Assembly: GCA_964601355.1 (NCBI GenBank)
Contig: CAZRNB010000001.1
Coordinates: forward strand, 825 to 64,824
Direction: 5' to 3'
DNA length: 64,000 nt
Origin: an uncultured Pirellulales bacterium
GTDB taxonomy: Bacteria > Planctomycetota > Phycisphaerae > Sedimentisphaerales > Anaerobacaceae
Below, in pieces: positions 27,385 through 62,862 of the stretch (within the stretch, counting starts at the first letter, position 1; each line of letters begins with the position of its first letter). The position numbers and the translations under genes were made by a program. The notes below the pieces were generated by a model. That model saw only the letters and a program-made list of their open reading frames with translations, searched no databases and was not told the DNA's origin.

Positions 27385-27431
27385 ATATCGTAGGTCAGCA
27401 GACAGCGTTCAGCGTACAGGAAAAATAAGAC

Positions 27432-27514
27432 GAATTTGAATTAAGAATTGAGAATGTAGAATTTAGAATTAAACTTTTCCCTTTTCTCAATTCTCAATTC
27501 TAACTTCTAAATTC
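27432..27514. repeat. hairpin element, family A (AGAATTG/TAGAATT 7-mer arms)
   Basis: gaatttgaattaagaattgagaatgtagaatttagaatt-loop-tctcaattctcaattctaacttctaaattc followed by a T-run. 3' of ilvE. Related copies at 44293-44376 and 54013-54068. Confidence 0.75.
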
Positions 27515-27538
27515 TTTTTTTGCCTGATATTCAGATTT

Positions 27539-29249: not shown

Positions 29250-29262
29250 TTAATTGATGAAT

Positions 29263-29308
29263 AGGGTTCGGGGGTCAGTAAAAACCAGACCTCTGAACCC
29301 TGATCCCT
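29263..29308. repeat. hairpin element, family C (GGGGTCA / TGACCCC type), short copy
   Basis: agggttcgggggtcagtaaaaaccagacctctgaaccctgatccct, directly 3' of lolD. Confidence 0.65.
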
Positions 29309-29311
29309 TAA

Positions 29312-30001
29312 TTAAGAACCAGCCGTCATCTTTCCATCTACCATTTTTATAATCCGTCCTGCTCTTTTTGCGACTCCTTCATTATGAGTTACCATTACAA
29401 TGGTTTGGCCGGCTTTATTTAGTTTTTCAAAGGTCTCTAAAATACCACTTCCTGTTGCCGAGTCAAGATTTCCCGTAGGTTCATCGGCTAAAAGCAGCTC
29501 AGGCTCATTCATCAGGGCCCTTCCGATAGCAACCCTTTGTCTTTCTCCGCCGGAGAGCTGGTATGGTTTATGTTCGGCTCTGTCCGTTAGACCAAGCTGA
29601 ACCAGCAGCTCTTTGGCTCGGCTTTTCGCCTGCTTTCGGCACGTGAGCCAGCCGACCACGCTTTTCGAGGCCATTGCCGGCAGATAAACGTTTTCCAATA
29701 CAGTTAATTCGTCCAATAAATGGTAGAACTGAAAAACAAATCCAATCATTTTATTACGAAACCTGTTTAATTCGCCGGAACTGTAGCTATTTAAATCCCT
29801 GCCTTCAAACTTAACTATTCCTTTATCGGGCCTGTCCAGAGCACCCAATATATGCAATAACGTGCTTTTACCACTTCCGGAAGCCCCGATTATCGCAGCA
29901 AATTCGCCCTTTTCAACAGACAAATCAACACCTTTGAGCACCTTAACTTCGGTTGCACCCATGCGATAAGATTTATATATTTCCTCGGCTCTTAACATCA
30001 A
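29312..30001 (-). CDS. lolD: ABC transporter ATP-binding protein, LolD/MacB-type
   Basis: Walker A GASGSGKST, signature LSGGERQRVAIGRAL, Walker B LLLADEPT. Adjacent to two FtsX-type permeases. Confidence 0.8.
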   Translation of the reverse strand: MMLRAEEIYKSYRMGATEVKVLKGVDLSVEKGEFAAIIGASGSGKSTLLHILGALDRPDKGIVKFEGRDLNSYSSGELNRFRNKMIGFVFQFYHLLDELTVLENVYLPAMASKSVVGWLTCRKQAKSRAKELLVQLGLTDRAEHKPYQLSGGERQRVAIGRALMNEPELLLADEPTGNLDSATGSGILETFEKLNKAGQTIVMVTHNEGVAKRAGRIIKMVDGKMTAGS

Positions 30002-30020
30002 TTGTCCTACATAAAATTGT

Positions 30021-30085
30021 GAGTAGGATTCGGGGGTCAGGGGTCGGGAGTCGGCAAAAACCTGACCCCTGATCCCTGATCCCTT
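30021..30085. repeat. hairpin element, family C, full copy
   Basis: gagtaggattcgggggtcaggggtcgggagtcgg-caaaaac-ctgacccctgatccctgatccc. Nearly identical to the copy inside lysS at 34347-34417. Confidence 0.85.
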
Positions 30086-30106
30086 AATTTTTATATTTGA
30101 TATTCT

Positions 30107-31528
30107 TTATAATTGGCTTACCTGCAAAGTCTCTATCGTATTCCGCCTTGCCGCCTGCCGGCTCGGTATAAATGCACCAATTAAACATACAGCAACCGCG
30201 GAGAAAATAATCAGTGCCAGAACATCAAACTCCACCTGATTCGGGATATCACCAATAGCATATATCGTCCTGTCCCAAAGTTGAAAACCAAAATGTTCGA
30301 AAAGCCACTGCTCAATCTGATTTATTTTCCGCAAAAATAACCAGCCGGTGAATAATCCTATTGCAGAGCCTATCAGGCCGACAGAAAAGGCAAATCCCAA
30401 AAAAAGCATAATAATATTGGTATTTGAGACACCGACGCTTTTTAGTATCCCAATATCTTTGCTTTTATGACTGATAATCATATAAAAGACAACTAAGACT
30501 ATAAAAACCGTCGTAATTCCCACGAGTGCAAATAATACGGTCATCATCGTCTGCTCTTTCTCCATGGCAGCGATGTACTCACGTCTGTACTCCTTCCAGC
30601 TTTGAACGGTTACCGTATCTAACAGGTACGCCTGCTCTTCGGCGGCTTTTCCCTGCTTAAATTTGTCCCAGAGCAAAGCGACTTTTTCGCAGCCGATGTG
30701 CAATCTGATATCGGGTTTGAACTTTATATGAATGGTGTTGACTCGTTTCAAAGGGCCATCCATACCACAAAGCCATTGGGCCTGCTCAAAAGGAATATAT
30801 ACGACAGAACCATCCACTCGGGCTAAACCGCTGTAAGAATAGTCACTATAGTAGAAATTTTGAGTGTTAATCAGCCCTAAGTCAGCTTTAGCCGGCGCAC
30901 CTTTTGCCGTCAGGGGAACACAGCTAACAGATACAGATGTTTCATCAAGACGGTCACTAAAAAAATAGTCTCCTCTCGGCCCGCGCTGCGGCGCCATAGC
31001 GATTCCCAGCCTGTTACCAACCTCGATACCCAGCACGCACCCAATGAGGTTCGGGTCGCCCTGCCCAAGGCGGGTCTGACCTCGTCCAGGCATTTGGCCT
31101 GGCCGGCCCGGCGGCTCAAATGCCTTCGAGAGATCGCCTCTGTGGTAATACAGCATCTCGCCGAAACCCGTGGTACTGCTGTGCCTGACCGGCTCGATAC
31201 CCATAATCTCCAGGCCGACCCCGCGCTCCGTCCAGCTCGGACAGACCAGCGCGTAACTTTTTATCACAGCAGATACACTATCAATAAAATCGGCCTGCTC
31301 CAATATCTTCATAAAATCTTCGTAGTATGTAAAACCAACCAATGTCTCAGTACCGACCACGCAATCCCCGGTAAAGCGGTGATTTTTCTGCTTAAAGTCA
31401 CGCACTAAGCCCGTCAGCACAGTCATTACCACTAAAACGATAAAAACGCAAAGTGCAACAGTAAGCACCACAAAATACGTTATATGGCGCTTCACCAAAT
31501 ATCTGCTTGCAAGAATAAGCTTATACAT
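30107..31528 (-). CDS. ABC transporter permease, FtsX/LolC-E family
   Basis: 473 aa. N-terminal TM, large periplasmic domain and three C-terminal TM helices (FtsX fold). KSKDIGILKSVG motif. Confidence 0.8.
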   Translation of the reverse strand: MYKLILASRYLVKRHITYFVVLTVALCVFIVLVVMTVLTGLVRDFKQKNHRFTGDCVVGTETLVGFTYYEDFMKILEQADFIDSVSAVIKSYALVCPSWTERGVGLEIMGIEPVRHSSTTGFGEMLYYHRGDLSKAFEPPGRPGQMPGRGQTRLGQGDPNLIGCVLGIEVGNRLGIAMAPQRGPRGDYFFSDRLDETSVSVSCVPLTAKGAPAKADLGLINTQNFYYSDYSYSGLARVDGSVVYIPFEQAQWLCGMDGPLKRVNTIHIKFKPDIRLHIGCEKVALLWDKFKQGKAAEEQAYLLDTVTVQSWKEYRREYIAAMEKEQTMMTVLFALVGITTVFIVLVVFYMIISHKSKDIGILKSVGVSNTNIIMLFLGFAFSVGLIGSAIGLFTGWLFLRKINQIEQWLFEHFGFQLWDRTIYAIGDIPNQVEFDVLALIIFSAVAVCLIGAFIPSRQAARRNTIETLQVSQL

Positions 31529-31541
31529 ATCTCAAAGTTTA

Positions 31542-31600
31542 GTTCATTGTTATTAGTTCATAGTTCATCGTCAATAAACAACGAACTATGAACAATGAAC
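31542..31600. repeat. hairpin element, family B (GTTCATN 7-mer arms)
   Basis: gttcattgttattagttcatagttcatcg-tcaataaaca-acgaactatgaacaatgaac. Related copies at 38344-38406 and 53882-53923. Confidence 0.75.
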
Positions 31601-31604
31601 CAAT

Positions 31605-32978
31605 CTACTCATATCGCAGGATCTCCACCGGCTTTGTCTCGGCTGCGACAATCGCAGGGATTAATGTTCCGATAGCAGCTGCTACGACGGCAAACAATAC
31701 GATAGGCAAAACCGATGACCAGTCAATATTATTCGGAATCCTGCTGAACATATAGACACTGCTTTTCCAAAGCTTCAGCCCGAAGATTATCCTAATCCAT
31801 TCCTCAAGCGTATTGATATTCTTTGTAATAATGTATGCCAAAACAGCTCCGAGACCTGAGCCGACGGCTCCTACAAAACCTCCAAAACCGAGAAACACAA
31901 GGGCTACTGAGCTGCTCGTCGTCCCGCAGCTTTTTACTATGGCGATGTCACGCTGCTTAAGCCTGACTATCATGTAGAATATACAGAATATAAGCACTAT
32001 TACACTGAAACTGACGACGCCAAAAATCAGCAATAAAACTCCCATTTGCTTTCGCAGCTCACCGGCATACTGACTCTGCATCTGTTTTGCCGTTTCAATG
32101 TCTGTATAGCCTATAAGATATGGATTTGCGTTAAGGTGCTGATTAACAAAATTCAGCCACGCGCCACGAATTTGGGCTATTGCAGCATCTGTCCTGGCAG
32201 CACTGGTGAGCTTAATTTGAATCTGGTTGGCAAGCGGCTCTTTTTCCGTCGGATATAAAACCTGCTGTAATTGTTCTATGGGAAGGTACACAAATCCTTT
32301 ATCAAGGTCATAGACGCCGGTCTGTACAATATCTACAATGGTTAATTTTAAGGCCTTTCTTTTAAACCTGATGCCGGCCTGACCACTTGATGGCGAATCT
32401 TCAGATCCTATTTTTGCACCTGTAGTGAGAACAACCTGCTGGCCAATCATGCTATCGACCACTCTGTAATCATATTCATCTGTCGTTTCATTAGGTTCGG
32501 TTATCACTGCGATCCCAACAAATCCACCGACATCGTTTGGCGAGTCCGCCACTTCAAAAGAAGGCTCCTCATCCGATTGTCCCTGTCTGCGCAAAAACTG
32601 TTTAAAGCCGGTTACCCTCGCACGTTTGGCAGGCTCAATCCCCCAAATGTGCACTGCACGCACATTGCCTTTGCCTAAATGCAGAAGTCCCTGTGACGAT
32701 AGTGTAGCCGTGGCCGCATCAACAGCAGAAATCTTCTCGAGCTGCTCAATAAATAGTGGATACTTTGCAAATGTTACCGGTGCCGAAAGAACAACGTCGC
32801 CTATTGTCTGAACCGCCGCCTGTTCAAGCATATTGATAAAACCGGTGAACAGGCTGGCCACAACAATCAACAGCGACGTTGACAACGCAACCGCAGCGAT
32901 GCTCAACAGTACAATTTTTTTCTTACAGAGGTATCGAAACCACAAAAATAATTTCAACATCTCGTTTCGGAGGTTCAA
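31605..32978 (-). CDS. ABC transporter permease, FtsX/LolC-E family
   Basis: 457 aa with the same architecture as 30107-31528. KQRDIAIVKSCG motif. Confidence 0.8.
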   Translation of the reverse strand: MNLRNEMLKLFLWFRYLCKKKIVLLSIAAVALSTSLLIVVASLFTGFINMLEQAAVQTIGDVVLSAPVTFAKYPLFIEQLEKISAVDAATATLSSQGLLHLGKGNVRAVHIWGIEPAKRARVTGFKQFLRRQGQSDEEPSFEVADSPNDVGGFVGIAVITEPNETTDEYDYRVVDSMIGQQVVLTTGAKIGSEDSPSSGQAGIRFKRKALKLTIVDIVQTGVYDLDKGFVYLPIEQLQQVLYPTEKEPLANQIQIKLTSAARTDAAIAQIRGAWLNFVNQHLNANPYLIGYTDIETAKQMQSQYAGELRKQMGVLLLIFGVVSFSVIVLIFCIFYMIVRLKQRDIAIVKSCGTTSSSVALVFLGFGGFVGAVGSGLGAVLAYIITKNINTLEEWIRIIFGLKLWKSSVYMFSRIPNNIDWSSVLPIVLFAVVAAAIGTLIPAIVAAETKPVEILRYE

Positions 32979-34564
32979 TCTTTAAAAGGTTTCAGAAGTG
33001 GAAACAATACGACATCACGAATACTCAAAGCGCCGGTCAAGACCATAACCAATCTGTCAATTCCGATACCCAATCCACCTGCCGGCGGCATACCATACTT
33101 CAGCGCCGTTATATAGTCCTGGTCCATTTTGGTTAGTGATTCTTCCTGGCCGCGAAGCTGCGTAAGAAAATTCTCATATTGTTCCGCAGGGTCATTCAAC
33201 TCAGTATATGCATTCGCCAGCTCCATCTGGGCGACGAACAATTCAAATCGCTCGGCAAATCTTCCGTCATCCTTTTTACGTCTGGCTAAAGGACACAATA
33301 CGGCCGGATAATCAATCACAAACGTCGGGGCAATGAGATGCTCCTCAACGGTGGTCTCAAATACCTCATTGGTAACTACCGCGTCATCCAAAACATCCTC
33401 TTCTATACCGAGCGATTTTGCTTTTATTCTGATAGCTTGTATATCATCAATATTACAGCCGCTGTATTGCTTTAGAAGGTCCGCGTATCGGGCTCGCCGC
33501 CAGGGCCGCGTGAAATCCACAGCCATTTCGCCGAACATCACCCCATTAGAAATTTCTCCCTGAGAGGTAATCGCCTTCTTTTCGTTATTTCCAACGGGGT
33601 GAATCTGTTTGGCCGCGCTAAGTTTTTCCGCGCATGCGGAGATAGCATCCTCAGCCAATTCCATCATCACATTGTAATCAGCGTACGCTTGATACGCTTC
33701 GAGCATCGTAAATTCCGGATTGTGGTATCTGCTGATTCCTTCGTTGCGGAAGCTGCGATTTATCTCGAAGACCTTTTCCATCCCGCCCACCAGCAGTCTC
33801 TTGAGAAACAGCTCCGGCGAAATCCGCAGGAATAAATCCATATCAAGACTATTATGGTGCGTTATGAAAGGCTTTGCCGCGGCTCCGCCGGCTATGGTCT
33901 GCATCATCGGCGTCTCGACTTCCAGAAAACCCTTCGATACAAGGAGCTGGCGAATCGCAGCAATGACGTCGCTGCGTTTTTTAAACCGCTCCAGCACCTC
34001 AGGATTAGCCCACAGGTCAACGTATCTCTGCCGGTAGCGCAGGTCAATATCCGCCAGACCGTGAAACTTTTCCGGCGGCGGATACAAACACTTGCTCAAA
34101 AGTGTAAGGCGGTCAACCCAAATGGTTATCTCTCCCGTTTGGGTCCTGCCCAATTGACCGGCAGCACCGATTATATCACCAAGCTCAAGCAGCTTGGCAA
34201 GCTGCCAATCGTTTGCATTGGTTCCAATCAGACCCTTGCTCAAGCCGACCTGGATGGTTCCGCTGCTGTCACGCAGAGTAATAAATATCAGCTTGCCAAT
34301 ATCCCTCAGCAGCACAATCCTGCCTGCACAATTGGCACGCCCCGATGAGTAGGATTCGGGGGTCAGGGGTCGGGGGTCGGCAAAAACCTGACCCCTGAAC
34401 CCTGATCCCTGACCCCTTGCCGGGTCTTTGAATCTGCGCTTTACATCTTCAGCCGGCTCCGTATCCTCATATCTGCCGCCGTACGGCTCAATACCAAGCT
34501 GCTTAATTTGGTTCAGCTTTTCCTGTCTTTGTCGTTCAAATTTATCTTGTTTTGTATCTTGCAT
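32975..34564 (-). CDS. lysS: lysine--tRNA ligase (class II)
   Basis: RYRQRYVDL, EVETPMMQ..GGAAAKPF, FRNEGIS..HNPEFTMLE and GGLGIGIDRLVM. Contains a repeat insertion at 34347-34417. Confidence 0.95.
   Translation of the reverse strand: MQDTKQDKFERQRQEKLNQIKQLGIEPYGGRYEDTEPAEDVKRRFKDPARGQGSGFRGQVFADPRPLTPESYSSGRANCAGRIVLLRDIGKLIFITLRDSSGTIQVGLSKGLIGTNANDWQLAKLLELGDIIGAAGQLGRTQTGEITIWVDRLTLLSKCLYPPPEKFHGLADIDLRYRQRYVDLWANPEVLERFKKRSDVIAAIRQLLVSKGFLEVETPMMQTIAGGAAAKPFITHHNSLDMDLFLRISPELFLKRLLVGGMEKVFEINRSFRNEGISRYHNPEFTMLEAYQAYADYNVMMELAEDAISACAEKLSAAKQIHPVGNNEKKAITSQGEISNGVMFGEMAVDFTRPWRRARYADLLKQYSGCNIDDIQAIRIKAKSLGIEEDVLDDAVVTNEVFETTVEEHLIAPTFVIDYPAVLCPLARRKKDDGRFAERFELFVAQMELANAYTELNDPAEQYENFLTQLRGQEESLTKMDQDYITALKYGMPPAGGLGIGIDRLVMVLTGALSIRDVVLFPLLKPFKD
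34347..34417. repeat. family C hairpin element inserted in-frame in lysS
   Basis: gagtaggattcgggggtcaggggtcgggggtcggcaaaaacctgacccctgaaccctgatccctgacccct encodes ARGQGSGFRGQVFADPRPLTPESYS, N-terminal to the anticodon-binding OB fold. Confidence 0.85.
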
Positions 34565-37283
34565 CTTGTAATAGGAGACAGGAGACAGGAGACAGAAGAC
34601 AGGAGTTAATATTCTGTATTCTGTATTCTGTATTCTGTATTCTTTCCTGAGCCAGTTTAGTTTTAATAACCAGGACGGCTACCGCCAGCTCCGGGTCCGC
34701 CGCTAAGGTCTCTTCGATAGTATGTCTTTTCGGCATCTCTCTGCCGGCGCCACGGTCGGCTTGAGATCCGTTAGAAGATTCTTTTCTGCCGGTTAGAGTA
34801 TTCTGATCCTCCCTTCGGGTCTGAGCCTCAGGGTCGAAGACTAACACGGTTTTTCTAACGGGTTGAACAAGCACGTCATTATCGCGCTGAATATCGAGCA
34901 TTTTCTTGAGATCATCACTTGTCAGCACTATTTCAACGTTTGGCCCGACACCCCAATCTTTGCCGCCCTGTTTTTCGACCTCATCTCGGCTTTTAACTCT
35001 TTGACCGGAAGGTAAATGATAGTATGCCATCGTATATTTTAGCTGTGCTCCGCCGCCTGGATATTCGGTTATTCCCTGTACGCTGCCTTTGCCATGCGTT
35101 CTTTCGCCGACCAGGACCGCCCGGTTGTGCATCTGGTCTGCTAAAGCTCCCGCTACAATTTCAGAAGCGCTGGCCGAGTCGGAATTAATCAATATGACCA
35201 GCGGATAATCCGGATGCGTCCCCTTGGCGTGCGCCGCTTTATAACTCGGCGTCCTGCCGAAGCCGGGTTGTGTTCTGACTATCAATCCCTCTTTTATGAA
35301 ATGGTCGGCCACATCCACGGCACTTTCCAGCAGACCCCCGGAATTGAATCGCAGGTCCAGGATAAGCCCTTTCAATCCTTCCTGCTCTAATTGACTTAAT
35401 ACCTTATCAAGCTCCACGGGAGCATCTGCGGAAAAGCTGGTAAGACGAACATAGCCGACTTTGTTCTGCTGGTCGATCATATACAGCCAGTCGCCTGTTC
35501 CAGTCCTTTGCCAGCCCCGAACCGATGAAACAGTTATCCTGGCTCTGGTAATGGTAATATCCTGAGTTTTTTCTTCGCCCGGCCGCTTAATCGTCAGCGT
35601 CACCTTCGTGCCTTTGGGGCCGGTGATTTTATGAACAGCGCATATAAGACTCATATCTTGCGCATCAAGGCCGTCCACCGCCGTTATCACGTCACCGGCG
35701 TCAAGACCGGCTTTATATGCCGGTGTATCCGGCAATAAGCTGGACACCGTCAACAGCCCTTTGGGTTTGGAAATCTCTATCCCAATGCCCGTGAACTCAT
35801 TGGTCATTATCTTCTCGAAATCCTGCACTTGCCTGGGCCATACTATAACCGTATAAGGATCAAGCGAAGATAATGCCGCTTCTGCAAACTGGGAAATCAG
35901 CACCTGCCGAGGCAGCTGAATCGTTACGGCGTTCAGTGACATTATTCTCTCAAAAATTTCTATGAACTTATCTTTAGTGAGCCCGGCAGACAAAGTAAGG
36001 CCCTGTATATGACCTCCGGTCGAGCTCGATGCGGCTTCAGCCTCGGACAATTCGTTAAGGCGGACAAGAGCAGCTGAGAAGGCGGCAAGCTCATTGGCAT
36101 CCACCCCCCGCAGCACTGTGGAGGATTGATTGGGCGATGAGCCTTCCACTGTGGGATTACTATCTTCACCCTCCGACATGGCCAAAGGTAACTGCCGACC
36201 GGCTTGAAAATATGTATTTACAATCTCGGCCAACAGCTCACAACGTTTGATAGCATCGGCAGTCATCCGGCTATAATCGATAGTATTGACGTAATGCGTA
36301 TCGAGCGCCTCTATCGTCCGAATGAACATCTCTTTTTTAATCCCCTGGAAACGTTCTTCGCGTGTTTCACAGGGACTGTCCTGAAGAGAAGCAATAATGC
36401 CGGCTTTATCCAAAAGCTGATCTGCATAATCTGAATAAGCCTCGTTGTTTGGATCAATTGCCTGCAGCCAAAAGTAGCAGGTTGTGTATGCTTCAAGATA
36501 TTTACCCTGAAGCTCAAGACCGGATGTCCTATCTATGGCCTTTTGAAAAACCTGTTTAACATAAGAATTAGATAATAGCTCCGCTTTCTGCGCATCATCT
36601 GCCAGCTCACCTGCCGCGGTGATAACAGAAAGCATTTTAATTATATCATTTACGTCGTTTACGTCGTTTGCGGAGGATTTAGAGGCCGAATCGTTGACGT
36701 GGATTCCTGCTAAGGGGGGTTCGTCGCTGCTGTGCATCTTGGCCTGAAGTTTCTCCAGCTCAGTTAACTGCTGCTGGTAAGCTGATTGCCGAGCTGATCG
36801 ACGCTGTCGATCTAAAGTCTGATACGCATCAATAATCTCCAACAACTGACGAATAGTTCCACTAAATCCACCTGCATTGCCCTGGTCGATTTGTTTCAGC
36901 AGCTCGCCGGCAAAATCGAATTTACCCTTGTAAATCAGTTCGCACGCTGCGCGGATAACGCTTAACGGCGATTCCGACACTTCATTAGCGTTTGGTTCCG
37001 CCGGGAGGGGCTTTGGAACTTCAGCAGGCGTTAGTTTATCCTGAAGTATGCTGTCAGCTGATACGTCAGCAGCAGGTGTTTCCAGGGCAATTAGCGGAGT
37101 TGAAAATCTATGCCCAAGAGATAGGATACCACGTGGAGTATCCCACAGTGGCCAGCAGAAGAACACCAAAAGAAAAGAGCATAGAAGCAGCAGGAACAAA
37201 GTGACTTTTACACTTTTAGCTCGATTGTCCTGCCAAAATAATTTTTTTAATCTTAACAACTGCAATGAACCGCTCCTTACCAA
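34542..37283 (-). CDS. S41-family C-terminal processing peptidase with PDZ domain and a long N-terminal extension
   Basis: PDZ (GIGIEISK...PAYKAGLDAGDVITAVDG) and S41 core (LILDLRFNSGGLL, INSDSASASEIVAGAL, GERTHGKGSVQ). TTG start, so uncertain. The C-terminal 30 aa are read through the family F repeat. Confidence 0.85.
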   Translation of the reverse strand: MVRSGSLQLLRLKKLFWQDNRAKSVKVTLFLLLLCSFLLVFFCWPLWDTPRGILSLGHRFSTPLIALETPAADVSADSILQDKLTPAEVPKPLPAEPNANEVSESPLSVIRAACELIYKGKFDFAGELLKQIDQGNAGGFSGTIRQLLEIIDAYQTLDRQRRSARQSAYQQQLTELEKLQAKMHSSDEPPLAGIHVNDSASKSSANDVNDVNDIIKMLSVITAAGELADDAQKAELLSNSYVKQVFQKAIDRTSGLELQGKYLEAYTTCYFWLQAIDPNNEAYSDYADQLLDKAGIIASLQDSPCETREERFQGIKKEMFIRTIEALDTHYVNTIDYSRMTADAIKRCELLAEIVNTYFQAGRQLPLAMSEGEDSNPTVEGSSPNQSSTVLRGVDANELAAFSAALVRLNELSEAEAASSSTGGHIQGLTLSAGLTKDKFIEIFERIMSLNAVTIQLPRQVLISQFAEAALSSLDPYTVIVWPRQVQDFEKIMTNEFTGIGIEISKPKGLLTVSSLLPDTPAYKAGLDAGDVITAVDGLDAQDMSLICAVHKITGPKGTKVTLTIKRPGEEKTQDITITRARITVSSVRGWQRTGTGDWLYMIDQQNKVGYVRLTSFSADAPVELDKVLSQLEQEGLKGLILDLRFNSGGLLESAVDVADHFIKEGLIVRTQPGFGRTPSYKAAHAKGTHPDYPLVILINSDSASASEIVAGALADQMHNRAVLVGERTHGKGSVQGITEYPGGGAQLKYTMAYYHLPSGQRVKSRDEVEKQGGKDWGVGPNVEIVLTSDDLKKMLDIQRDNDVLVQPVRKTVLVFDPEAQTRREDQNTLTGRKESSNGSQADRGAGREMPKRHTIEETLAADPELAVAVLVIKTKLAQERIQNTEYRIQNINSCLLSPVSCLLLQDARYKTR
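34574..34642. repeat. hairpin element, family F (GGAGACA / TTCTGTA 7-mer arms)
   Basis: ggagacaggagacaggagacagaagacaggag-ttaat-attctgtattctgtattctgtattctgtattc. Arms pair with G-T wobbles. Related long copy at 62724-62826. Confidence 0.8.
37124..37151. repeat. short copy of the GGATACC...GTATCC element inside the S41 peptidase ORF
   Basis: ggataccacgtggagtatcccacagtgg encodes WDTPRGIL in the N-terminal membrane-proximal region. Confidence 0.6.
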
Positions 37284-37290
37284 GGTATCT

Positions 37291-37363
37291 GGTAATTGGT
37301 GAGTGGTTAATTGGTTAAATGGTTAATTGGTTAATTAACCACTCACCGCTCACCATTTAACCA
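37291..37363. repeat. hairpin element, family E (GGTTAAT 7-8-mer arms)
   Basis: ggtaattggtgagtggttaattggttaaatggttaattggttaatt|aaccactcaccgctcaccatttaacc, 3' of fba. Confidence 0.75.
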
Positions 37364-37365
37364 GT

Positions 37366-38310
37366 TTACAAACACTCCGCCGCTTTGCCGGCACAACCGA
37401 GGACGTGCAGTTTATGCCTGACCATCTTCTCGATAGCCTCTCTGCCCGGGCCGAGGTACTTACGGGGGTCAAACTCACCCGGCTTTTCCGCAAAGACCTG
37501 CCTGATTTTAGCCGTCAGCGCCAGTCTCAAATCCGTATCAATATTAACCTTGCAGATGGCCATCTTTGCAGCTCTGCTGATTGCTTCTTCCGGCACGCCC
37601 ATAGCATTGGGCATTTTGCCGCCGTACTTGTTAATAAGGTCAACGAACTCTTTTAGCACAGTGCTTGCGCCGTGCATTACCAGCGGAAAGCCGGGCAGCC
37701 TGTCGGCTATCTCCTGTATTACGTCGAAAGCTAATTTGGGTTCACTTTTGAACTTATAAGCCCCATGACTTGTGCCGCAGGCCACCGCCAGCGAATCACA
37801 GCCGCTCTTTTCCACAAACTCTTCCACCTGATCCGGGTCAGCCAGGTGTTTATGCACATCGTCAACGCTGACCACGTCCTCTTCAATACCGCCCAATTGG
37901 CCAAGCTCAGCCTCAACGCATACGTCCCTTGCGTGCGCATATTGAACCACCTTTTTAGTAATCTCGATGTTTTCTTTAAACGGTCGGCTCGAAGCGTCAA
38001 TCATCACTGAGGTGAAACCATCATCCACGAATTGTTTGCACGTCTCAAAGGAATCACCATGGTCGAGATTTGTGGCTATGGGTATGCCGGGATTTTCTTC
38101 AACTACCACATTGATAATCGCCTTAAGATAGCTATTCTTTGCATAATCACGGGCGCCCCTGGATATCTGCAAAATAAGCGGGGCTTTTTCCGCACCTGTG
38201 GCAGCAATAATACCCTGCGTTATTTCCATATTGTTCACGTTGAAGGCCCCAACTGCATAGCCATTTTTATAAGCCATCTCGAACATCTTTCTTGTATTAA
38301 CCAACGGCAT
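37366..38310 (-). CDS. fba: class II fructose-1,6-bisphosphate aldolase
   Basis: GYAVGAFNVNNME, LDHG, HGASTV and the TDLR-type motifs. The ATG at 38310 has an AAGGAGA RBS; the ORF-track start is 38337. Confidence 0.9.
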   Translation of the reverse strand: MPLVNTRKMFEMAYKNGYAVGAFNVNNMEITQGIIAATGAEKAPLILQISRGARDYAKNSYLKAIINVVVEENPGIPIATNLDHGDSFETCKQFVDDGFTSVMIDASSRPFKENIEITKKVVQYAHARDVCVEAELGQLGGIEEDVVSVDDVHKHLADPDQVEEFVEKSGCDSLAVACGTSHGAYKFKSEPKLAFDVIQEIADRLPGFPLVMHGASTVLKEFVDLINKYGGKMPNAMGVPEEAISRAAKMAICKVNIDTDLRLALTAKIRQVFAEKPGEFDPRKYLGPGREAIEKMVRHKLHVLGCAGKAAECL

Positions 38311-38343: not shown

Positions 38344-38406
38344 CGTTCATTGTTATGAGTTCATAGTTCATCGATGAACAATGAACAGCGGACAATGAAC
38401 AACGAA
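38344..38406. repeat. hairpin element, family B
   Basis: gttcattgttatgagttcatagttcatcg|atgaacaatgaacagcggacaatgaacaacgaac, between the LptD-like gene and fba. Confidence 0.75.
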
Positions 38407-38411
38407 CATAG

Positions 38412-43156: not shown

Positions 43157-43176
43157 ATACGTTGTGCGTCTTATAA

Positions 43177-43263
43177 GTGCCTAAAGTGAGCTAAAGTGTC
43201 TAAAGTGAACTAAAGTTGTTGTTCTTAACTTTAGGCACTTTTAACTTTAGTCACTTTAGTCAC
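43177..43263. repeat. hairpin element, family D (CTAAAGTG 9-10-mer arms)
   Basis: gtgcctaaagtgagctaaagtgtctaaagtgaactaaagt-loop-aactttaggcacttttaactttagtcactttagtcac, 3' of pilT. Second copy at 60681-60789. Confidence 0.8.
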
Positions 43264-55627: not shown

Positions 55628-57283
55628 TCACCTGTTTCGTGTTTTAAGATAATCAAGAACCACTAATTTGTCGCTGAAATTGAATTTCTGGGTTCCGATT
55701 ATTTGGTAGTTTTCATGGCCTTTGCCGGCGATAAGCACAATATCATCCTTGCCGGCAGTTCTTATGGCTAACTCGATGGCCTTTCTTCTATCCGGCTCAA
55801 TTATTTTCGTCGCTCGTCGCTCGTCGCTCGTCGCTCGTAATTCCGTATGCGGTACCGCAGGCCCTTTTTCAAAACCTGTAACTATTTCATTAATGATGCC
55901 TCCGGGTTTTTCTGTTCGCGGATTGTCACTGGTGACGATTACAATGTCTGCTAATTCCTCGGCGACTTTGGCCATTCGAGGACGTTTGGTTCTGTCCCTG
56001 TCGCCGCCGCAGCCAAAAACGACTATCAATCTGCCTTTGCACAAAGGTTTCAGTGTCGTCAGGACGTTTTTCAAGGCATCATCAGTATGGGCATAATCAA
56101 TTAACACGTGACTCGTCCATTCTCCGTAGCACTGCGAAGGATGAATCGCTTGTCGCTCGTCGCTCGCTGCTCGTTCCCTGACCCCCGACCCCCGACCCCC
56201 GACTCCTGAACAATCGACTTTTTCCAATCGGCCAGGCACGCCCTGCAGGACCGAAAGGCCTGCTGCTATCGTTTCCAAATCCATGCCGGATGCAAGGCAC
56301 AATCCCGCTGCTGCAAGGTGATTGCTGACATTATGAAGACCCAATAAAGGAGTCTTTACGAGTGACGAGTGACGAGTGACGAGTGACGATTCGTCTGCAT
56401 ACTCTAAAGTGAAAACCGTTCCATTTATGTCCGTCGATTCGGTGTGAGCAGTAATATCCGCTGGTTCATCGATAGCATACCATAAGATTTTGGCCTTTGT
56501 ATTTTTGGCAATATGCTCAGCCTGGGGTGATTGCTTGTTCAATACCGCAACCGCATCAGGCAAAAGGGCGGAAAAAAGTTTCGTCTTGGCGGCCAAATAA
56601 TCTTCTGTGGTCTTGTGATAGTCCAGGTGGTCGCCGGTGAGGTTGGTAAAAGCTGCTGCTGTAAAATTTATCCCAGCCAGGCGATTCTGTGACAGGGCAT
56701 GGCTGCTGGCCTCGATGACCATATATTCGCAGCCGGCTTTAATCATTTCCTGCTGGATGCGTGCAATTTCCAGGCAATCCGGTGTTGTCATTGAAGCCTG
56801 GCAGATGCTACGGCCTGTGTCGTATTCAACGGTGCCGATTAGGCCGCACTTTTTGCCGGCCGTTTGTATTATCGACCGAACCAAATAAGCCGTAGTAGTT
56901 TTGCCGTTTGTGCCGGTGACGGCGAGATTGATTAGTAGCGAAGCCGGATTACCAGCCCTTGCCTGTGCCAGAAGGGCTGCCGCTTCTGCGGAATTTTTCA
57001 CGTCGATAATCTCGATACTCGATGCTTGATGCTGGATACCGTCACCACAGGGGTGACGGCTAAACATCGTCCATCGTCCGTCGTCTCTCGTCCCTCGTTT
57101 TTTCTTCTGGCAAACTATGTATTTTGCGCCTTTGGCGATGGCCTGGTCGATGAAGTCATGGCCGTCACAGTTGGCGCCTTTGATAGCTACAAATATATCG
57201 CCGTCTTTGACGAGCCGTGAATCAATGCAAATATTTGGGTGATCGACGGAAGATGCCAACGCTAATAATTCGTTGAATGTCAT
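55628..57283 (-). CDS. murE: UDP-N-acetylmuramoyl-L-alanyl-D-glutamate--2,6-diaminopimelate ligase
   Basis: VTGTNGKTTT, EASSHAL, FTNLTGDHLDYH, IDYAHTDDAL, FGCGGDRDRTKRP, DNPRTE and AGKGHE. The ORF is intact despite four repeat insertions. Confidence 0.95.
   Translation of the reverse strand: MTFNELLALASSVDHPNICIDSRLVKDGDIFVAIKGANCDGHDFIDQAIAKGAKYIVCQKKKRGTRDDGRWTMFSRHPCGDGIQHQASSIEIIDVKNSAEAAALLAQARAGNPASLLINLAVTGTNGKTTTAYLVRSIIQTAGKKCGLIGTVEYDTGRSICQASMTTPDCLEIARIQQEMIKAGCEYMVIEASSHALSQNRLAGINFTAAAFTNLTGDHLDYHKTTEDYLAAKTKLFSALLPDAVAVLNKQSPQAEHIAKNTKAKILWYAIDEPADITAHTESTDINGTVFTLEYADESSLVTRHSSLVKTPLLGLHNVSNHLAAAGLCLASGMDLETIAAGLSVLQGVPGRLEKVDCSGVGGRGSGVRERAASDERQAIHPSQCYGEWTSHVLIDYAHTDDALKNVLTTLKPLCKGRLIVVFGCGGDRDRTKRPRMAKVAEELADIVIVTSDNPRTEKPGGIINEIVTGFEKGPAVPHTELRATSDERRATKIIEPDRRKAIELAIRTAGKDDIVLIAGKGHENYQIIGTQKFNFSDKLVVLDYLKTRNR
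55805..55864. repeat. murE insertion 4: (TCGTCGC)x4 plus the palindrome GCGGTACCGC
   Basis: Tandem 7-mers at 55807-55834, then taattccgtatgcggtaccgcagg. Encodes GPAVPHTELRATSDERRATK between VTGFEK and IIEPDRR. Confidence 0.85.
56109..56216. repeat. murE insertion 3: mosaic of a core-like module, degenerate TCGTCGC 7-mers and family C GACCCCC units
   Basis: ctccgtagcactgcgaaggatgaatcgc-ttgtcgctcgtcgctcgctgctcgttcc-ctgacccccgacccccgacccccgactcc encodes CSGVGGRGSGVRERAASDERQAIHPSQCYGEWTSH, between GRLEKVD and VLIDYAHT. Confidence 0.85.
56360..56387. repeat. murE insertion 2: (GAGTGAC)x4 perfect tandem 7-mers
   Basis: Four exact copies encode SSLVTRHSSLV, before the conserved PLLGLHNVSN. Confidence 0.85.
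57012..57100. repeat. murE insertion 1: TCGATAC/GATGCTG 7-mers, perfect hairpin CCGTCACC-ACAG-GGGTGACGG, CATCGTC 7-mers
   Basis: Encodes KRGTRDDGRWTMFSRHPCGDGIQHQASSIE between IVCQKK and IIDVKNSAEA. Confidence 0.85.
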
Positions 57284-60680: not shown

Positions 60681-60789
60681 GTGCCTAAAATTTAGAGTGA
60701 CTAAAGTGCCTAAAGTTACGAAATATAATCTTAGCTTGCTTTAGGCACTTTAGCTCACTTTAGGCACTTTAGCTCACTTTAGGCACTTT
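60681..60789. repeat. hairpin element, family D, long copy
   Basis: gtgcctaaaatttagagtgactaaagtgcctaaagt-loop-ctttaggcactttagctcactttaggcactttagctcactttaggcacttta, between the S55-like gene and the propeller-like gene. Confidence 0.8.
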
Positions 60790-60810
60790 ATCTAATTGGA
60801 TTCTGTCACA

Positions 60811-62862
60811 CTATTTCTCTACCGTTATACGCATACTTTTTCTATCGGCTACGATTGTGCCTGTTCTTACACTTTTTTCGAGCCATTGTGGATAGGGCTG
60901 GATTCTTAATGCTCTTATATCATCCTGCATGACAAGCGTTTTTGTCGCCGGCAAATCAGGAAGCTCAGACCTTTCTACTGCTATGCCGCTGGGCGGTAAA
61001 ACTAAAAGGCAGTACAATTTATCTCTATTGATGCTTAAAACATCGTTCAATGCCTCAATCAGACTCGTCATATCATACGCGATAAATCTATACGGGACGG
61101 TTTTCCGCAGATGCTGTTCATATTCGGACGAGCCTAATACAATCAATTCGTATTTCCCGGGATTGAGACCTTCGGGTATTTTCAGGCTGAACTGATATTT
61201 TTTCTTTTCTGAGAGGTACGATTCGAGAACGACGTCCACCTGGATTTGATGCCCAGGCTTAATACTCGAATCAGACAAATCGACCGACCATATATAAGAG
61301 GCGATGTTTTTCGGCAGGATGCGGATATCGAAATCAAGTGATGTTATATCAACTTCCTCAAAGGGATTGTTCATTAGCAGAAGCACGGAACCTTTACTTT
61401 CGGCTATCATTTCAGCCGTAGATAGTCCTGTGGATATATTTTCAAAATTGATCCCTATTTGTTGGGATTTGTCTTTCAGGCCGATACTTACCTTGTATTC
61501 AATCGTATGGTCCGGCGGAAAGCTGCCGAGGGACATAACTGCTCCAGACACGGTTGCATGGAGCAGCTCAGGAGTAAGCAATCGATTGTTGGCGAGCCGG
61601 CAGTTAAAACTTGCATCCCGTCGAAATCGGCTTTGCTCCCGTCCAGACAATCGGCCTGGCTGCTCTTGTGTGTTAAAACGGCTCACTTTTATCGTCAGCG
61701 GTATCATCTGCGGCGTTGCACCGATTTGCCCGAAAATCGCTGTTGGTTCGTCGGTTGTCAAGGCGCCGACTATTTCCATGCTGCTACCGAGCTTAAAAGA
61801 ACGAGCCAGATTTGATACAATGGTATGCACTTGGCCGGTGGCCATTGGCAAATCTATCGCTCCATAACCAAGCAGGCTGTGGCCAAAACCATAGACCTTA
61901 TCTCCCACAATCTCAGTGACGGTCCCAAGCACAGTCGATGTTATATCACCATCGACTAACGGCACCGTAAGAACTGCACCCGGGGTTAGCTGCACCTTTT
62001 GAGTATTGTTGGCATCCGAATTGCCTCCAATGCCCGAAACAGCCATAAGCCCGTAAGGCTCAAGCAAGGCCTCGAATTGTTTACAGGCATCAGGCGGCAG
62101 GCCGGAAATAATTAACGGGCACGGCAGCCATCCCAGCGCCGAAAGGTGTCCTGCGGAGCTGGATGCTGGATGCTGGATGCTGGATGCTGAATGCTCGACG
62201 AGAATCGAGCGTCGAGAATTGAGCATCGAGTTAATTTCAGCAAAATCGATCGGCTTGGAAAAATCGAGCGCAAATCCCATTTTGTTGGATTTCAAATCGT
62301 TGGCACTGCCTACTTTGAGCATTTCTTTAATCGGCGTAACGCCGTAAAGCGGGTCTTTGCTGAGTGTCCAGGCGAAAGACATCGCCCCGGCCAGCCGGCC
62401 TTCAATATAGACCGGCGAGCCGCTGCACCCGGCTACGGGACCTGTGTAAATAAAACGCTTATCTGTGCCTTGAACCAAAATCGCATCTCGACCCGGCTCA
62501 ATATTGTGCACCACACTTATAACATCCAAATCGAACTTCTCGATTTTGGTGCCGCTGTAACAGGTAAGACAATATGCCTTCATCCCAGGAGTAATCTCAT
62601 CAATGCTTATATATTTGGCTGGATCCCAAAGGTCTTTTGCAGAGCTTTTGCTGGGTGGGGCCGTATCTGGCGCAGCATTTTTTCCCACCTGCTGAGCGGA
62701 TTCACAAAGAGAGTCAGCTAAAAGCAGAAGACAGAAGACAAAAGCCGGAAAACAGAGGACAGAGGACGGAGAACGGAAATTCTGCCTTCTGTCTTCCGTC
62801 TTCTGTCTTCTATATTCTGTATTCTTTTTTTGCCCTTTTGCCCTTGTTTTTATTATGAACAT
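60811..62862 (-). CDS. secreted SpoIVB/S55-like serine peptidase-domain protein
   Basis: GCSGSPVYIEGRLAGAMSFAW (GxSGSP serine motif) and GTVTEIVGDKVYGFGHSLLGYG resemble peptidase S55. The N-terminal signal peptide is encoded by the family F repeat. Confidence 0.55.
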   Translation of the reverse strand: MFIIKTRAKGQKKNTEYRRQKTEDRRQNFRSPSSVLCFPAFVFCLLLLADSLCESAQQVGKNAAPDTAPPSKSSAKDLWDPAKYISIDEITPGMKAYCLTCYSGTKIEKFDLDVISVVHNIEPGRDAILVQGTDKRFIYTGPVAGCSGSPVYIEGRLAGAMSFAWTLSKDPLYGVTPIKEMLKVGSANDLKSNKMGFALDFSKPIDFAEINSMLNSRRSILVEHSASSIQHPASSSAGHLSALGWLPCPLIISGLPPDACKQFEALLEPYGLMAVSGIGGNSDANNTQKVQLTPGAVLTVPLVDGDITSTVLGTVTEIVGDKVYGFGHSLLGYGAIDLPMATGQVHTIVSNLARSFKLGSSMEIVGALTTDEPTAIFGQIGATPQMIPLTIKVSRFNTQEQPGRLSGREQSRFRRDASFNCRLANNRLLTPELLHATVSGAVMSLGSFPPDHTIEYKVSIGLKDKSQQIGINFENISTGLSTAEMIAESKGSVLLLMNNPFEEVDITSLDFDIRILPKNIASYIWSVDLSDSSIKPGHQIQVDVVLESYLSEKKKYQFSLKIPEGLNPGKYELIVLGSSEYEQHLRKTVPYRFIAYDMTSLIEALNDVLSINRDKLYCLLVLPPSGIAVERSELPDLPATKTLVMQDDIRALRIQPYPQWLEKSVRTGTIVADRKSMRITVEK
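62137..62230. repeat. 22-nt core followed by about ten 7-mers (CTGGATG x3, degenerating to CTCGACG/AGAATCG/AGCATCG), in-frame
   Basis: CGCCGAAAGGTGTCCTGCGGAG-ctggatgctggatgctggatgctgaatgctcgacgagaatcgagcgtcgagaattgagcatcgag encodes SRRSILVEHSASSIQHPASSSAGHLSALG. Confidence 0.85.
62724..62826. repeat. long family F hairpin inside the 5' end of the S55-like ORF
   Basis: Left arm gcagaagacagaagacaaaagccggaaaacagaggacagaggacggagaacggaa, right arm ttctgccttctgtcttccgtcttctgtcttctatattctgtattc. gaagacagaagac and gtcttctgtcttc are perfectly complementary. Confidence 0.85.

Follow-up and report, generated by a model that had tools for sequence, protein, structure and literature searches.

The Rickettsia palindromic elements (RPE), reportedly described by Ogata and colleagues in 2000 and 2002, are said to lie both between genes and in frame inside protein-coding genes, housekeeping genes included. 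They form a family of palindromes of about 100–150 nt without tandem heptamers, with dozens of near-identical copies in Rickettsia genomes, and a copy inside a gene is translated as an extra surface segment while the protein is spared. A comparable case is offered by a 64-kb stretch of DNA from an uncultured bacterium, placed in the Planctomycetota by the relatives of its lysine–tRNA ligase, LysS; this whole stretch is called the window below, and all positions refer to it unless another sequence is named. Here, a palindrome built of G-rich heptamers occurs in three copies, two of them intergenic (A and C) and one (B) in frame inside lysS, where it is probably a recent copy of a nearby element, made at the DNA level and translated as a tolerated passenger loop. 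With its in-frame and intergenic copies belonging to one family, the locus behaves as the RPE do, but it differs from them in its length (65–72 nt), in its heptamer arms with a variable number of units, in its copy number (three within 5 kb) and in its source, a metagenome-assembled genome (MAG) of the Planctomycetota; the kinship is thus an analogy of behaviour, and membership of the RPE is not claimed.

As for construction, the described systems that come nearest are the G-rich heptameric repeats of Xanthomonas (GGGAATC) and Nostoc (GGGGAYT), together with the short tandemly repeated repetitive sequences of cyanobacteria (STRR) (Rehm et al. 2015, PMC4692102; Mrazek et al. 2007 as cited there). 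In Xanthomonas and Nostoc, arrays of about four units often form convergent pairs able to fold into stem-loops, with 70–75 such pairs per Xanthomonas genome; they prefer the gaps between co-oriented open reading frames (ORFs), overlap with ORFs amounting to 7–11% in Xanthomonas and about a third in Nostoc, and array length differs between close relatives (PMC4692102). The over-representation of heptamers in bacteria and its explanation by polymerase slippage have both been published (PMC4692102, PMC4679880). The present locus has the same features, namely tandem heptamers of at least three units, an excess of period 7, convergent stem-loop pairs and a variable unit number. However, its unit is GGGGTCR, its arrays also stand in frame in the core enzymes LysS and MurE, and the length variants among orthologues are quantised in 21-nt steps; moreover, the whole composite of tag, arm, loop and arm is repeated near-identically at three sites, which argues for copying as a unit and not for local slippage alone.

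Two further classes share single traits with the element. Repetitive extragenic palindromes (REPs) are imperfect palindromes of 20–40 nt, present in high copy number and associated with RAYT (REP-associated tyrosine transposase) genes (Di Nocera et al. 2013, PMC3733652; Bertels and Rainey 2011, PMC3116915), and some REPs are known to lie inside genes, in several cases genes for replication and repair (PMC3733652). The likeness lies in the GTAG that precedes the hairpin in copies A and B and in the placement downstream of ORFs in co-directional strings, whereas the stem is far longer and made of internal repeats, ATAG takes the place of GTAG in copy C, and a RAYT was not seen among the scanned ORFs. 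MITEs (miniature transposable elements with inverted repeats), such as Correia, ERIC and Nezha (reviewed in PMC10969869), are likewise small non-autonomous repeats with inverted symmetry, at times in frame; unlike them, the element has no terminal inverted repeats apart from its stem and no target-site duplication in lysS, and no cognate insertion sequence was identified. Thus, by analogy, the closest system in behaviour is that of the RPE and the closest in construction that of the Xanthomonas and Nostoc heptameric repeats.

Regarding the element itself, an earlier sequence-only reading of the window had placed near-identical copies in an intergenic gap and inside lysS, and this placement was correct: copies A (30020–30084) and B (34346–34410) align without gaps and are identical at 63 of 65 positions (alignment and blastn, E 3.5e-28 within the window). 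That reading had taken the first 28 nt as the same and counted about three differences; the identical start is in fact 29 nt long (TGAGTAGGATTCGGGGGTCAGGGGTCGGG), and the differences come down to two substitutions. On the 3′ side, copy B extends one heptamer further than copy A. In structure, the element is a palindrome with the formula (GGGGTCR)n-GGCAAAAACC-(YGACCCC)n, its arms being inverted tandem arrays, and the + strand of copies A and B reads TGAGTAGGATTC, then GGGGGTCA GGGGTCG GG(A/G)GTCG, then GCAAAAAC, then CTGACCC CTGA(T/A)CC CTGATCC, as resolved by Tandem Repeats Finder (TRF) and an inverted-repeat search. TRF reported period-7 rows at 30026–30054, 30061–30084, 34356–34380 and 34387–34417, in agreement with a separate array scan; inverted repeats were found at all three copies, with a hairpin span of about 60–70 nt and arms of 24–30 nt of tandem units. 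Copy C has the same ends with fewer heptamers: it reads TGAATAGGGTTCGGGGGTCAG-TAAAAACC-AGACCTCTGAACCCTGATCCCTTAATT, with TAAAAACC as the loop and TGAATAGGGTTCGGGGGTCAG ... CTGAACCCTGATCCCTTAATT as its ends, while the ends common to the three copies are TGARTAGGRTTC ... CCCTGATCCCTT. AATT-containing termini are present in copies A and C and missing from copy B; the GTAG of copies A and B lies four bases 5′ of the stem, within TGAGTAGGATTC, and the ATAG of copy C is at the same position.

The three copies are confined to 5.2 kb of the window (p about 0.02, our own estimate under uniform placement), with the lysS copy 4.3 kb from copy A, and a profile built from them found no further copy in the window and none in the syntenic loci of two relatives (sequences L001 and L016). 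The 300-nt flanks on either side of copies A and B have no significant similarity by blastn, so the two copies are outside any duplicated block. The copies are predicted to fold far better than their shuffles, with minimum free energies of −32 to −56 kcal/mol and z from −3.4 to −6.7. The + strand, which is antisense to the mRNA, folds better in each of the three cases (−55.9 vs −47.2, −42.6 vs −31.7 and −32.4 vs −26.5 kcal/mol), because the mismatches are G.U on this strand and C.A on the other; this asymmetry is read as an inherited trait of the family and not as a sign of function, since the other heptamer hairpins of the window lack a consistent bias.

The host gene is a genuine lysS. Its product reaches 532 bits with the NCBIfam equivalog TIGR00499, for which the cut-off is 428, contains the Pfam domains tRNA_anti-codon (the OB fold) and tRNA-synt_2 (the class II core), and has strong matches to solved LysRS structures. 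The frame runs through the element as ...RRFKDPARGQGSGFRGQVFADPRPLTPESYSSGRANCAGRIVLLRDIGKLIF..., exactly as had been read from the letters alone, and the ORF stays open. The resulting 23-aa segment is present in none of the 119 other LysS sequences of a set made of the 120 best matches including the query (representatives of 90%-identity clusters; Planctomycetota MAG proteins, mostly 483–485 aa). All relatives have six codons between a conserved KD and A(K/N)C, the fifth being a nearly invariant Gln (Q52), and the window gene reads KD-PARGQ-[23 codons]-R-ANC; in the closest relative (protein P0002, encoded in L001), with 83% nucleotide identity over lysS, the corresponding stretch takes 18 nt (GDETQQ) vs 87 nt, or 29 codons, in the window. 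The idea of a recent insertion or gene conversion, as opposed to an ancient protein feature, is therefore supported by this ortholog comparison: no relative has a homologous segment, there is no duplicated block, a third copy exists, and the copies differ at 2 of 65 positions while lysS as a whole is only 83% identical to that of its closest relative.

The most economical reading of the alignment is a 69-nt insertion directly after the native Gln52 codon. The heptamer by which copy B exceeds copy A, TGACCCC on the + strand and AGG GGT CAG in the gene (34409–34417), then probably corresponds to the native codons R50-G51-Q52, which would explain both the apparent extra unit of copy B and how copying could be primed. 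Neither a target-site duplication nor clean boundaries were seen at the insert in the DNA alignment with the closest relative, the junctions being CAG/GGA and GGG/CGT. On alignment to 3A74, the insert falls in the linker that leads from the N-terminal helices to the first strand of the OB fold and whose length varies among LysRS; the location was taken from the alignments to 3A74 and 1E1O, the AlphaFold model (25-sequence alignment, mean pLDDT 40) being unusable. Orientation matters as well: in the observed direction two of the three frames of copy B are open, while the reversed copy has stops in all three, because its CCCTGAY repeats cycle TGA through every frame, and this constraint means that only a minority of the possible insertions could persist in a gene. 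A peptide search with the element translated in three frames gave no match, and as it also missed the self match to LysS, it was insensitive.

Taken together, these data make it fairly likely that a neighbouring copy was copied recently into lysS at the DNA level and that the outcome is carried as a tolerated passenger. The event could have been gene conversion, illegitimate recombination or template switching primed by microhomology; with AGG-GGT-CAG (Arg-Gly-Gln), the native codons match the heptamer unit and could have primed it, after which the number of heptamers would drift via replication slippage. The copy would survive thanks to its two open frames, its net length in multiples of three and the tolerant surface linker in which it lies, and the product would be a Gly/Pro/Arg-rich loop, a passenger rather than a functional protein module. 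However, several points weigh against this account. At the site of the native codons, the relatives read GGC CAA or ACT CAA and not GGT CAG, so that the microhomology rests on inferred ancestral codons; the nearest empty-site comparator is a different species; the copy count covers 64 kb of the source genome and is compatible with a dispersed, transposase-driven family; translation of the insert is presumed from the preservation of the frame; and an older hairpin in the same gene, described next, hints by its unusual nucleotide conservation that hairpins of this type are perhaps not neutral in every case. As for the route of arrival, it may have been any of local templated copying, gene conversion or transposition.

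The older hairpin is a second in-frame insertion in lysS, common only to the query and P0002 (at about 6955–7032 of L001). Over the 78 nt of this segment, the two species share 92% identity, compared with 84% for the gene on average (standard deviation 3.6, hence about +2.2 standard deviations; n = 2 sequences), which puts the segment on a level with the most conserved catalytic region of lysS; both substitutions in the stem yield G.U pairs on the sense strand. Insertions are also found elsewhere in this protein family. Internal insertions of at least 5 aa occur at seven sites in 14 of the 120 LysS sequences, the query included; 13 of these carriers rank within the 26 nearest to the query, and the fourteenth is P0109. 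In-frame heptamer arrays were read in the DNA of three relatives (Table 1), and at a site in the catalytic domain the inserts measure 7, 7, 14 and 35 aa, that is 3, 3, 6 and 15 heptamers. Such 21-nt steps are expected, because slippage alters the number of units and only multiples of three units survive in frame; indirectly, the step pattern is the main evidence that inserts of this kind may be translated. P0018 LysS has a 17-aa insert, VGAGLRARPGQPQGIAP, after column 339 of the core alignment; it is not heptamer-like and may be another GC-rich repeat in frame.

The element is one of many heptamer-array hairpins and not a stand-alone oddity. The window contains 12 strict period-7 arrays vs 0.0 in composition-preserving shuffles, whereas the other periods give one array at 8 and zero at 5, 6 and 9–12; TRF lists about 30 period-7 rows. 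Inverted pairs of arrays occupy the gaps of a co-directional gene string that encodes an S41 peptidase, LysS, two permeases, an ATPase, an unknown ORF, an aminotransferase and a polyprenyl synthase. The same gaps of the syntenic locus in L016 are filled by different heptamer or 7–8-nt hairpins, and L001 has heptamer arrays 3′ of its permease gene. For the two genes that flank copy A, LolD and LolCE are the best NCBIfam matches, both under the curated cut-offs, so that the lol label is a soft one. Inside genes, murE has four in-frame arrays, and the segments that they encode, for instance RATSDERRAT, GVGGRGSGVRERAASDER and SSLVTRHSSLV, fall into gaps of the alignment to solved MurE structures or into stretches left unaligned there, one of the gaps being a clean one of 7 residues. 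To judge from the 64-kb window, heptamer arrays and hairpins thus form a genome-wide population in this Planctomycetota lineage, and the element is part of it.

Table 1. Coordinates of the element, of lysS and of the arrays discussed in the text
Feature	Sequence	Positions	Strand	Description
lysS	window	32975..34564	-	class II lysine--tRNA ligase; 529 aa, intact; relatives typically 483-485 aa
Copy A	window	30020..30090	+	intergenic, between the genes for LolC/E-like permease and LolD-like ATPase
Copy B	window	34346..34417	+	inside lysS: TGAGTAGGATTC-(GGGGGTCA GGGGTCG GGGGTCG)-GCAAAAAC-(CTGACCC CTGAACC CTGATCC CTGACCC)
Copy C	window	29252..29312	+	shorter family member, in the next intergenic gap downstream; nhmmer E 8e-18
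Net lysS insertion	window	34340..34408	-	69 nt, 23 codons, residues 53-75, in frame; translated GSGFRGQVFADPRPLTPESYSSG
Tryptic peptides of LysS insert region	window			predicted: GQGSGFR, GQVFADPRPLTPESYSSGR
Older lysS hairpin insertion	window	33538..33603	-	second hairpin in lysS; 16-bp stem TTCACCCCGTTGGAAAT/ATTTCTAATGGGGTGA; 21 aa, encodes HPVGNNEKKAITSQGEISNGV
lysS array of relative	L016			(ACAGAGG)x6, adjoining the copy B insertion site
lysS array of relative	L017			(GACGAGR)x about 17
lysS array of relative	L018			(GACGAGG)x5 and inverted CGTCCAT arm
LolD-like ABC ATPase gene	window	29312-30001	-	flanks copy A
LolC/E-like FtsX permease gene	window	30107-31528	-	flanks copy A
Inverted array pairs in gene-string gaps	window	27424-27521, 29252-29312, 30020-30090, 31536-31606, 37290-37369, 38345-38408
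Unrelated heptamer-array hairpin	window	31536..31606		TAGTTCA / TGAACTA type; gap between two permease genes
Paired arrays	window	34573..34643		(AGGAGAC)x4.7 and (TATTCTG)x4.9; make up the S41 peptidase ORF's 3' tail; adjoin the lysS start on its upstream side
murE	window	55628-57283	-	in-frame arrays at 55807-55838, 56146-56203, 56358-56389, 57011-57098; units TCGTCGC; TCGCTCG and CCCCGAC; ACGAGTG; CTCGATA/CATCGTC
murE array with the element's heptamer	window	56146..56206	-	(GGGGTCG)x4 at 56176-56206, beside a (GCGAGCG)-type array; one arm only
Array in ORF 60811-62862	window	62158-62195		one array
TGGTTAA(A)T hairpin	window	37290-37369		position and sequence both conserved
TGGTTAA(A)T hairpin	L001	3273-3329
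TGGTTAA(A)T hairpin	L016	7230-7324, 14677-14740
Look-alike hairpin	L003	7197-7272
Look-alike hairpin	L006	7262-7335
Look-alike hairpin	L007	2306-2381
Look-alike hairpin	L008	167-242
Look-alike hairpin	L010	4421-4497
Look-alike hairpin	L011	574-654
Look-alike hairpin	L012	646-710

Some further repeats were seen in the same DNA. At the junction between the S41 peptidase gene and lysS, an array-encoded C-terminal tail of the peptidase ((GAATACA)n and (CTGTCTC)n; region 34542–34680) overlaps the lysS start codon and replaces the tail found in L001 and L016; a related AGAATACAGAAGACAG array lies at the same junction in L017 (900–1035). Near its C terminus (34720–34830), the peptidase also has some 30 extra residues (KTVLVFDPEAQTRREDQNTLTGRKESSNGSQ) relative to L001 and L016. 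A hairpin of 7–8-nt repeats, TGGTTAA(A)T / ACCAGTTACC, lies between the genes for fructose-bisphosphate aldolase and the S41 peptidase in all three genomes. Finally, a family of 19-nt / 9-nt repeats (TTAGCTCACTTTAGGCACT; core CTTTAGGCA) forms inverted arrays at the intergenic positions 43171–43263 and 60696–60790, and recurs upstream of the aminotransferase gene in L016 (15840–15872).

Other explanations were weighed against local copying. It seems unlikely that the element is a non-autonomous mobile element of the REP/REPIN or MITE kind, moved by a transposase encoded elsewhere, for example a RAYT that would recognise GTAG and the hairpin, and that it landed in frame by chance. The GTAG before the stem in copies A and B and the ends common to the three copies would suit such an origin, and GTAG-tagged REPs, intragenic ones included, are documented in several phyla, the Planctomycetes among them (PMC3733652). 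Local copying is nevertheless favoured, because the copies are clustered, copy B lacks the AATT-containing termini, lysS has no target-site duplication, and a Pfam scan of 36 window ORFs detected no transposase domain (35 of these ORFs have at least 150 aa and are most, not all, of the ORFs of that size). In addition, copy C carries ATAG, the arms are tandem heptamers, and the overall length of 65–72 nt exceeds that of REPs; scans of public metagenome contig collections, which do not include the source genome, with two family-specific patterns (a 23-mer specific to the loop, and a combination of the 5′ tag with the loop) gave no match, and a scan of viral sequences returned nothing. That the copies arose independently, one favoured heptamer being expanded by slippage at every site, can be regarded as effectively refuted. 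The heptamer does recur: a one-armed GGGGTCG array is present in murE, and a two-anchor pattern scan of genome contigs, which found only look-alikes in other phyla, brought up apparently intergenic GGGRTCA/TGAYCCC hairpins in MAGs of Nitrospiraceae, Acidobacteriaceae (with Blastocatellia, within the Acidobacteriota), Lysobacterales, Thermomicrobiales and Pirellulales, for which either convergence or a shared origin may account. Yet copies A and B share the 12-nt 5′ tag TGAGTAGGATTC, the loop GGCAAAAACC and the order of the variant units, which independent expansion would not yield. It is hardly credible, too, that the lysS copy is an artefact of MAG assembly, with the repeat mis-threaded into the gene. 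Short-read assemblies do break at arrays: Logan contigs from ERR4334733 and ERR4334734 end at an array, and one of the same strain (L014) starts at 62160, inside the (GCTGGAT)n array 62158–62195, which indicates that heptamer arrays fragment assemblies. However, these contigs are 100% identical to the window where they overlap it, both junctions of the insert run in frame into the genuine lysS, its net length is a multiple of three, and in-frame lysS arrays are present in independent assemblies of relatives.

On a different type of explanation, selection would act on the hairpins as nucleic-acid structures, which might stabilise mRNA, provide sites for processing or for insulation between cistrons, make translation pause, or serve as G-quadruplex/hairpin switches, and the lysS copy would be kept for a role in RNA or DNA; this is very unlikely. 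The idea draws on the position of the hairpins in gene gaps, which is conserved in the window, L016 and L001 while their sequence turns over, on folding far beyond that of shuffles, on the conservation of the older lysS hairpin with its sense-strand G.U changes, and on the four tracts of at least three G in the sense strand of copy B, G-quadruplex-forming heptamer repeats between aligned ORFs being known (PMC4692102). On the other hand, the G.U asymmetry of the element favours the antisense strand and not the mRNA, and the other hairpins have no consistent bias; a terminator and promoter scan found no site that coincides with the copies, terminator-like sites numbering 9 in the window vs 10.8 expected, and no Rfam family was matched in the window; the lysS insert is missing in all relatives, so it is not needed for LysS expression in general; and the conservation of the older hairpin rests on two sequences. 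A broader version, which we consider quite unlikely, is that heptamer hairpins are an actively generated and selected class rather than the passive residue of slippage, placed in operon gaps and, in 21-nt quanta, in LysS (seven sites across relatives) and MurE (four), there as translated mRNA structures, a role that the older lysS hairpin would suggest by its catalytic-motif level of conservation; if this were true, the recurrence of the GGGRTCA hairpin in five phyla or more would speak for horizontal spread or for a mechanism common to them and so far unrecognised.

In conclusion, a recent DNA-level copy that became a tolerated loop remains the preferred reading of the lysS insert, and it would represent a clean natural case of non-coding repeat DNA turned protein, in which a nearly unaltered intergenic hairpin now makes up 23 residues of an essential aminoacyl-tRNA synthetase. 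As such, it bears on the origin of insertion-tolerant loops in core enzymes, on annotation, since ORFs can be lengthened or fused by arrays, the S41 peptidase/lysS junction being an example, and on metagenome assembly, since contigs break at arrays. It is not a new kind of system: RPE-like behaviour is extended to the Planctomycetota and to palindromes built of heptamers. The more interesting lead is the clade-wide colonisation of core enzymes by heptamer arrays, quantised in steps of 21 nt.

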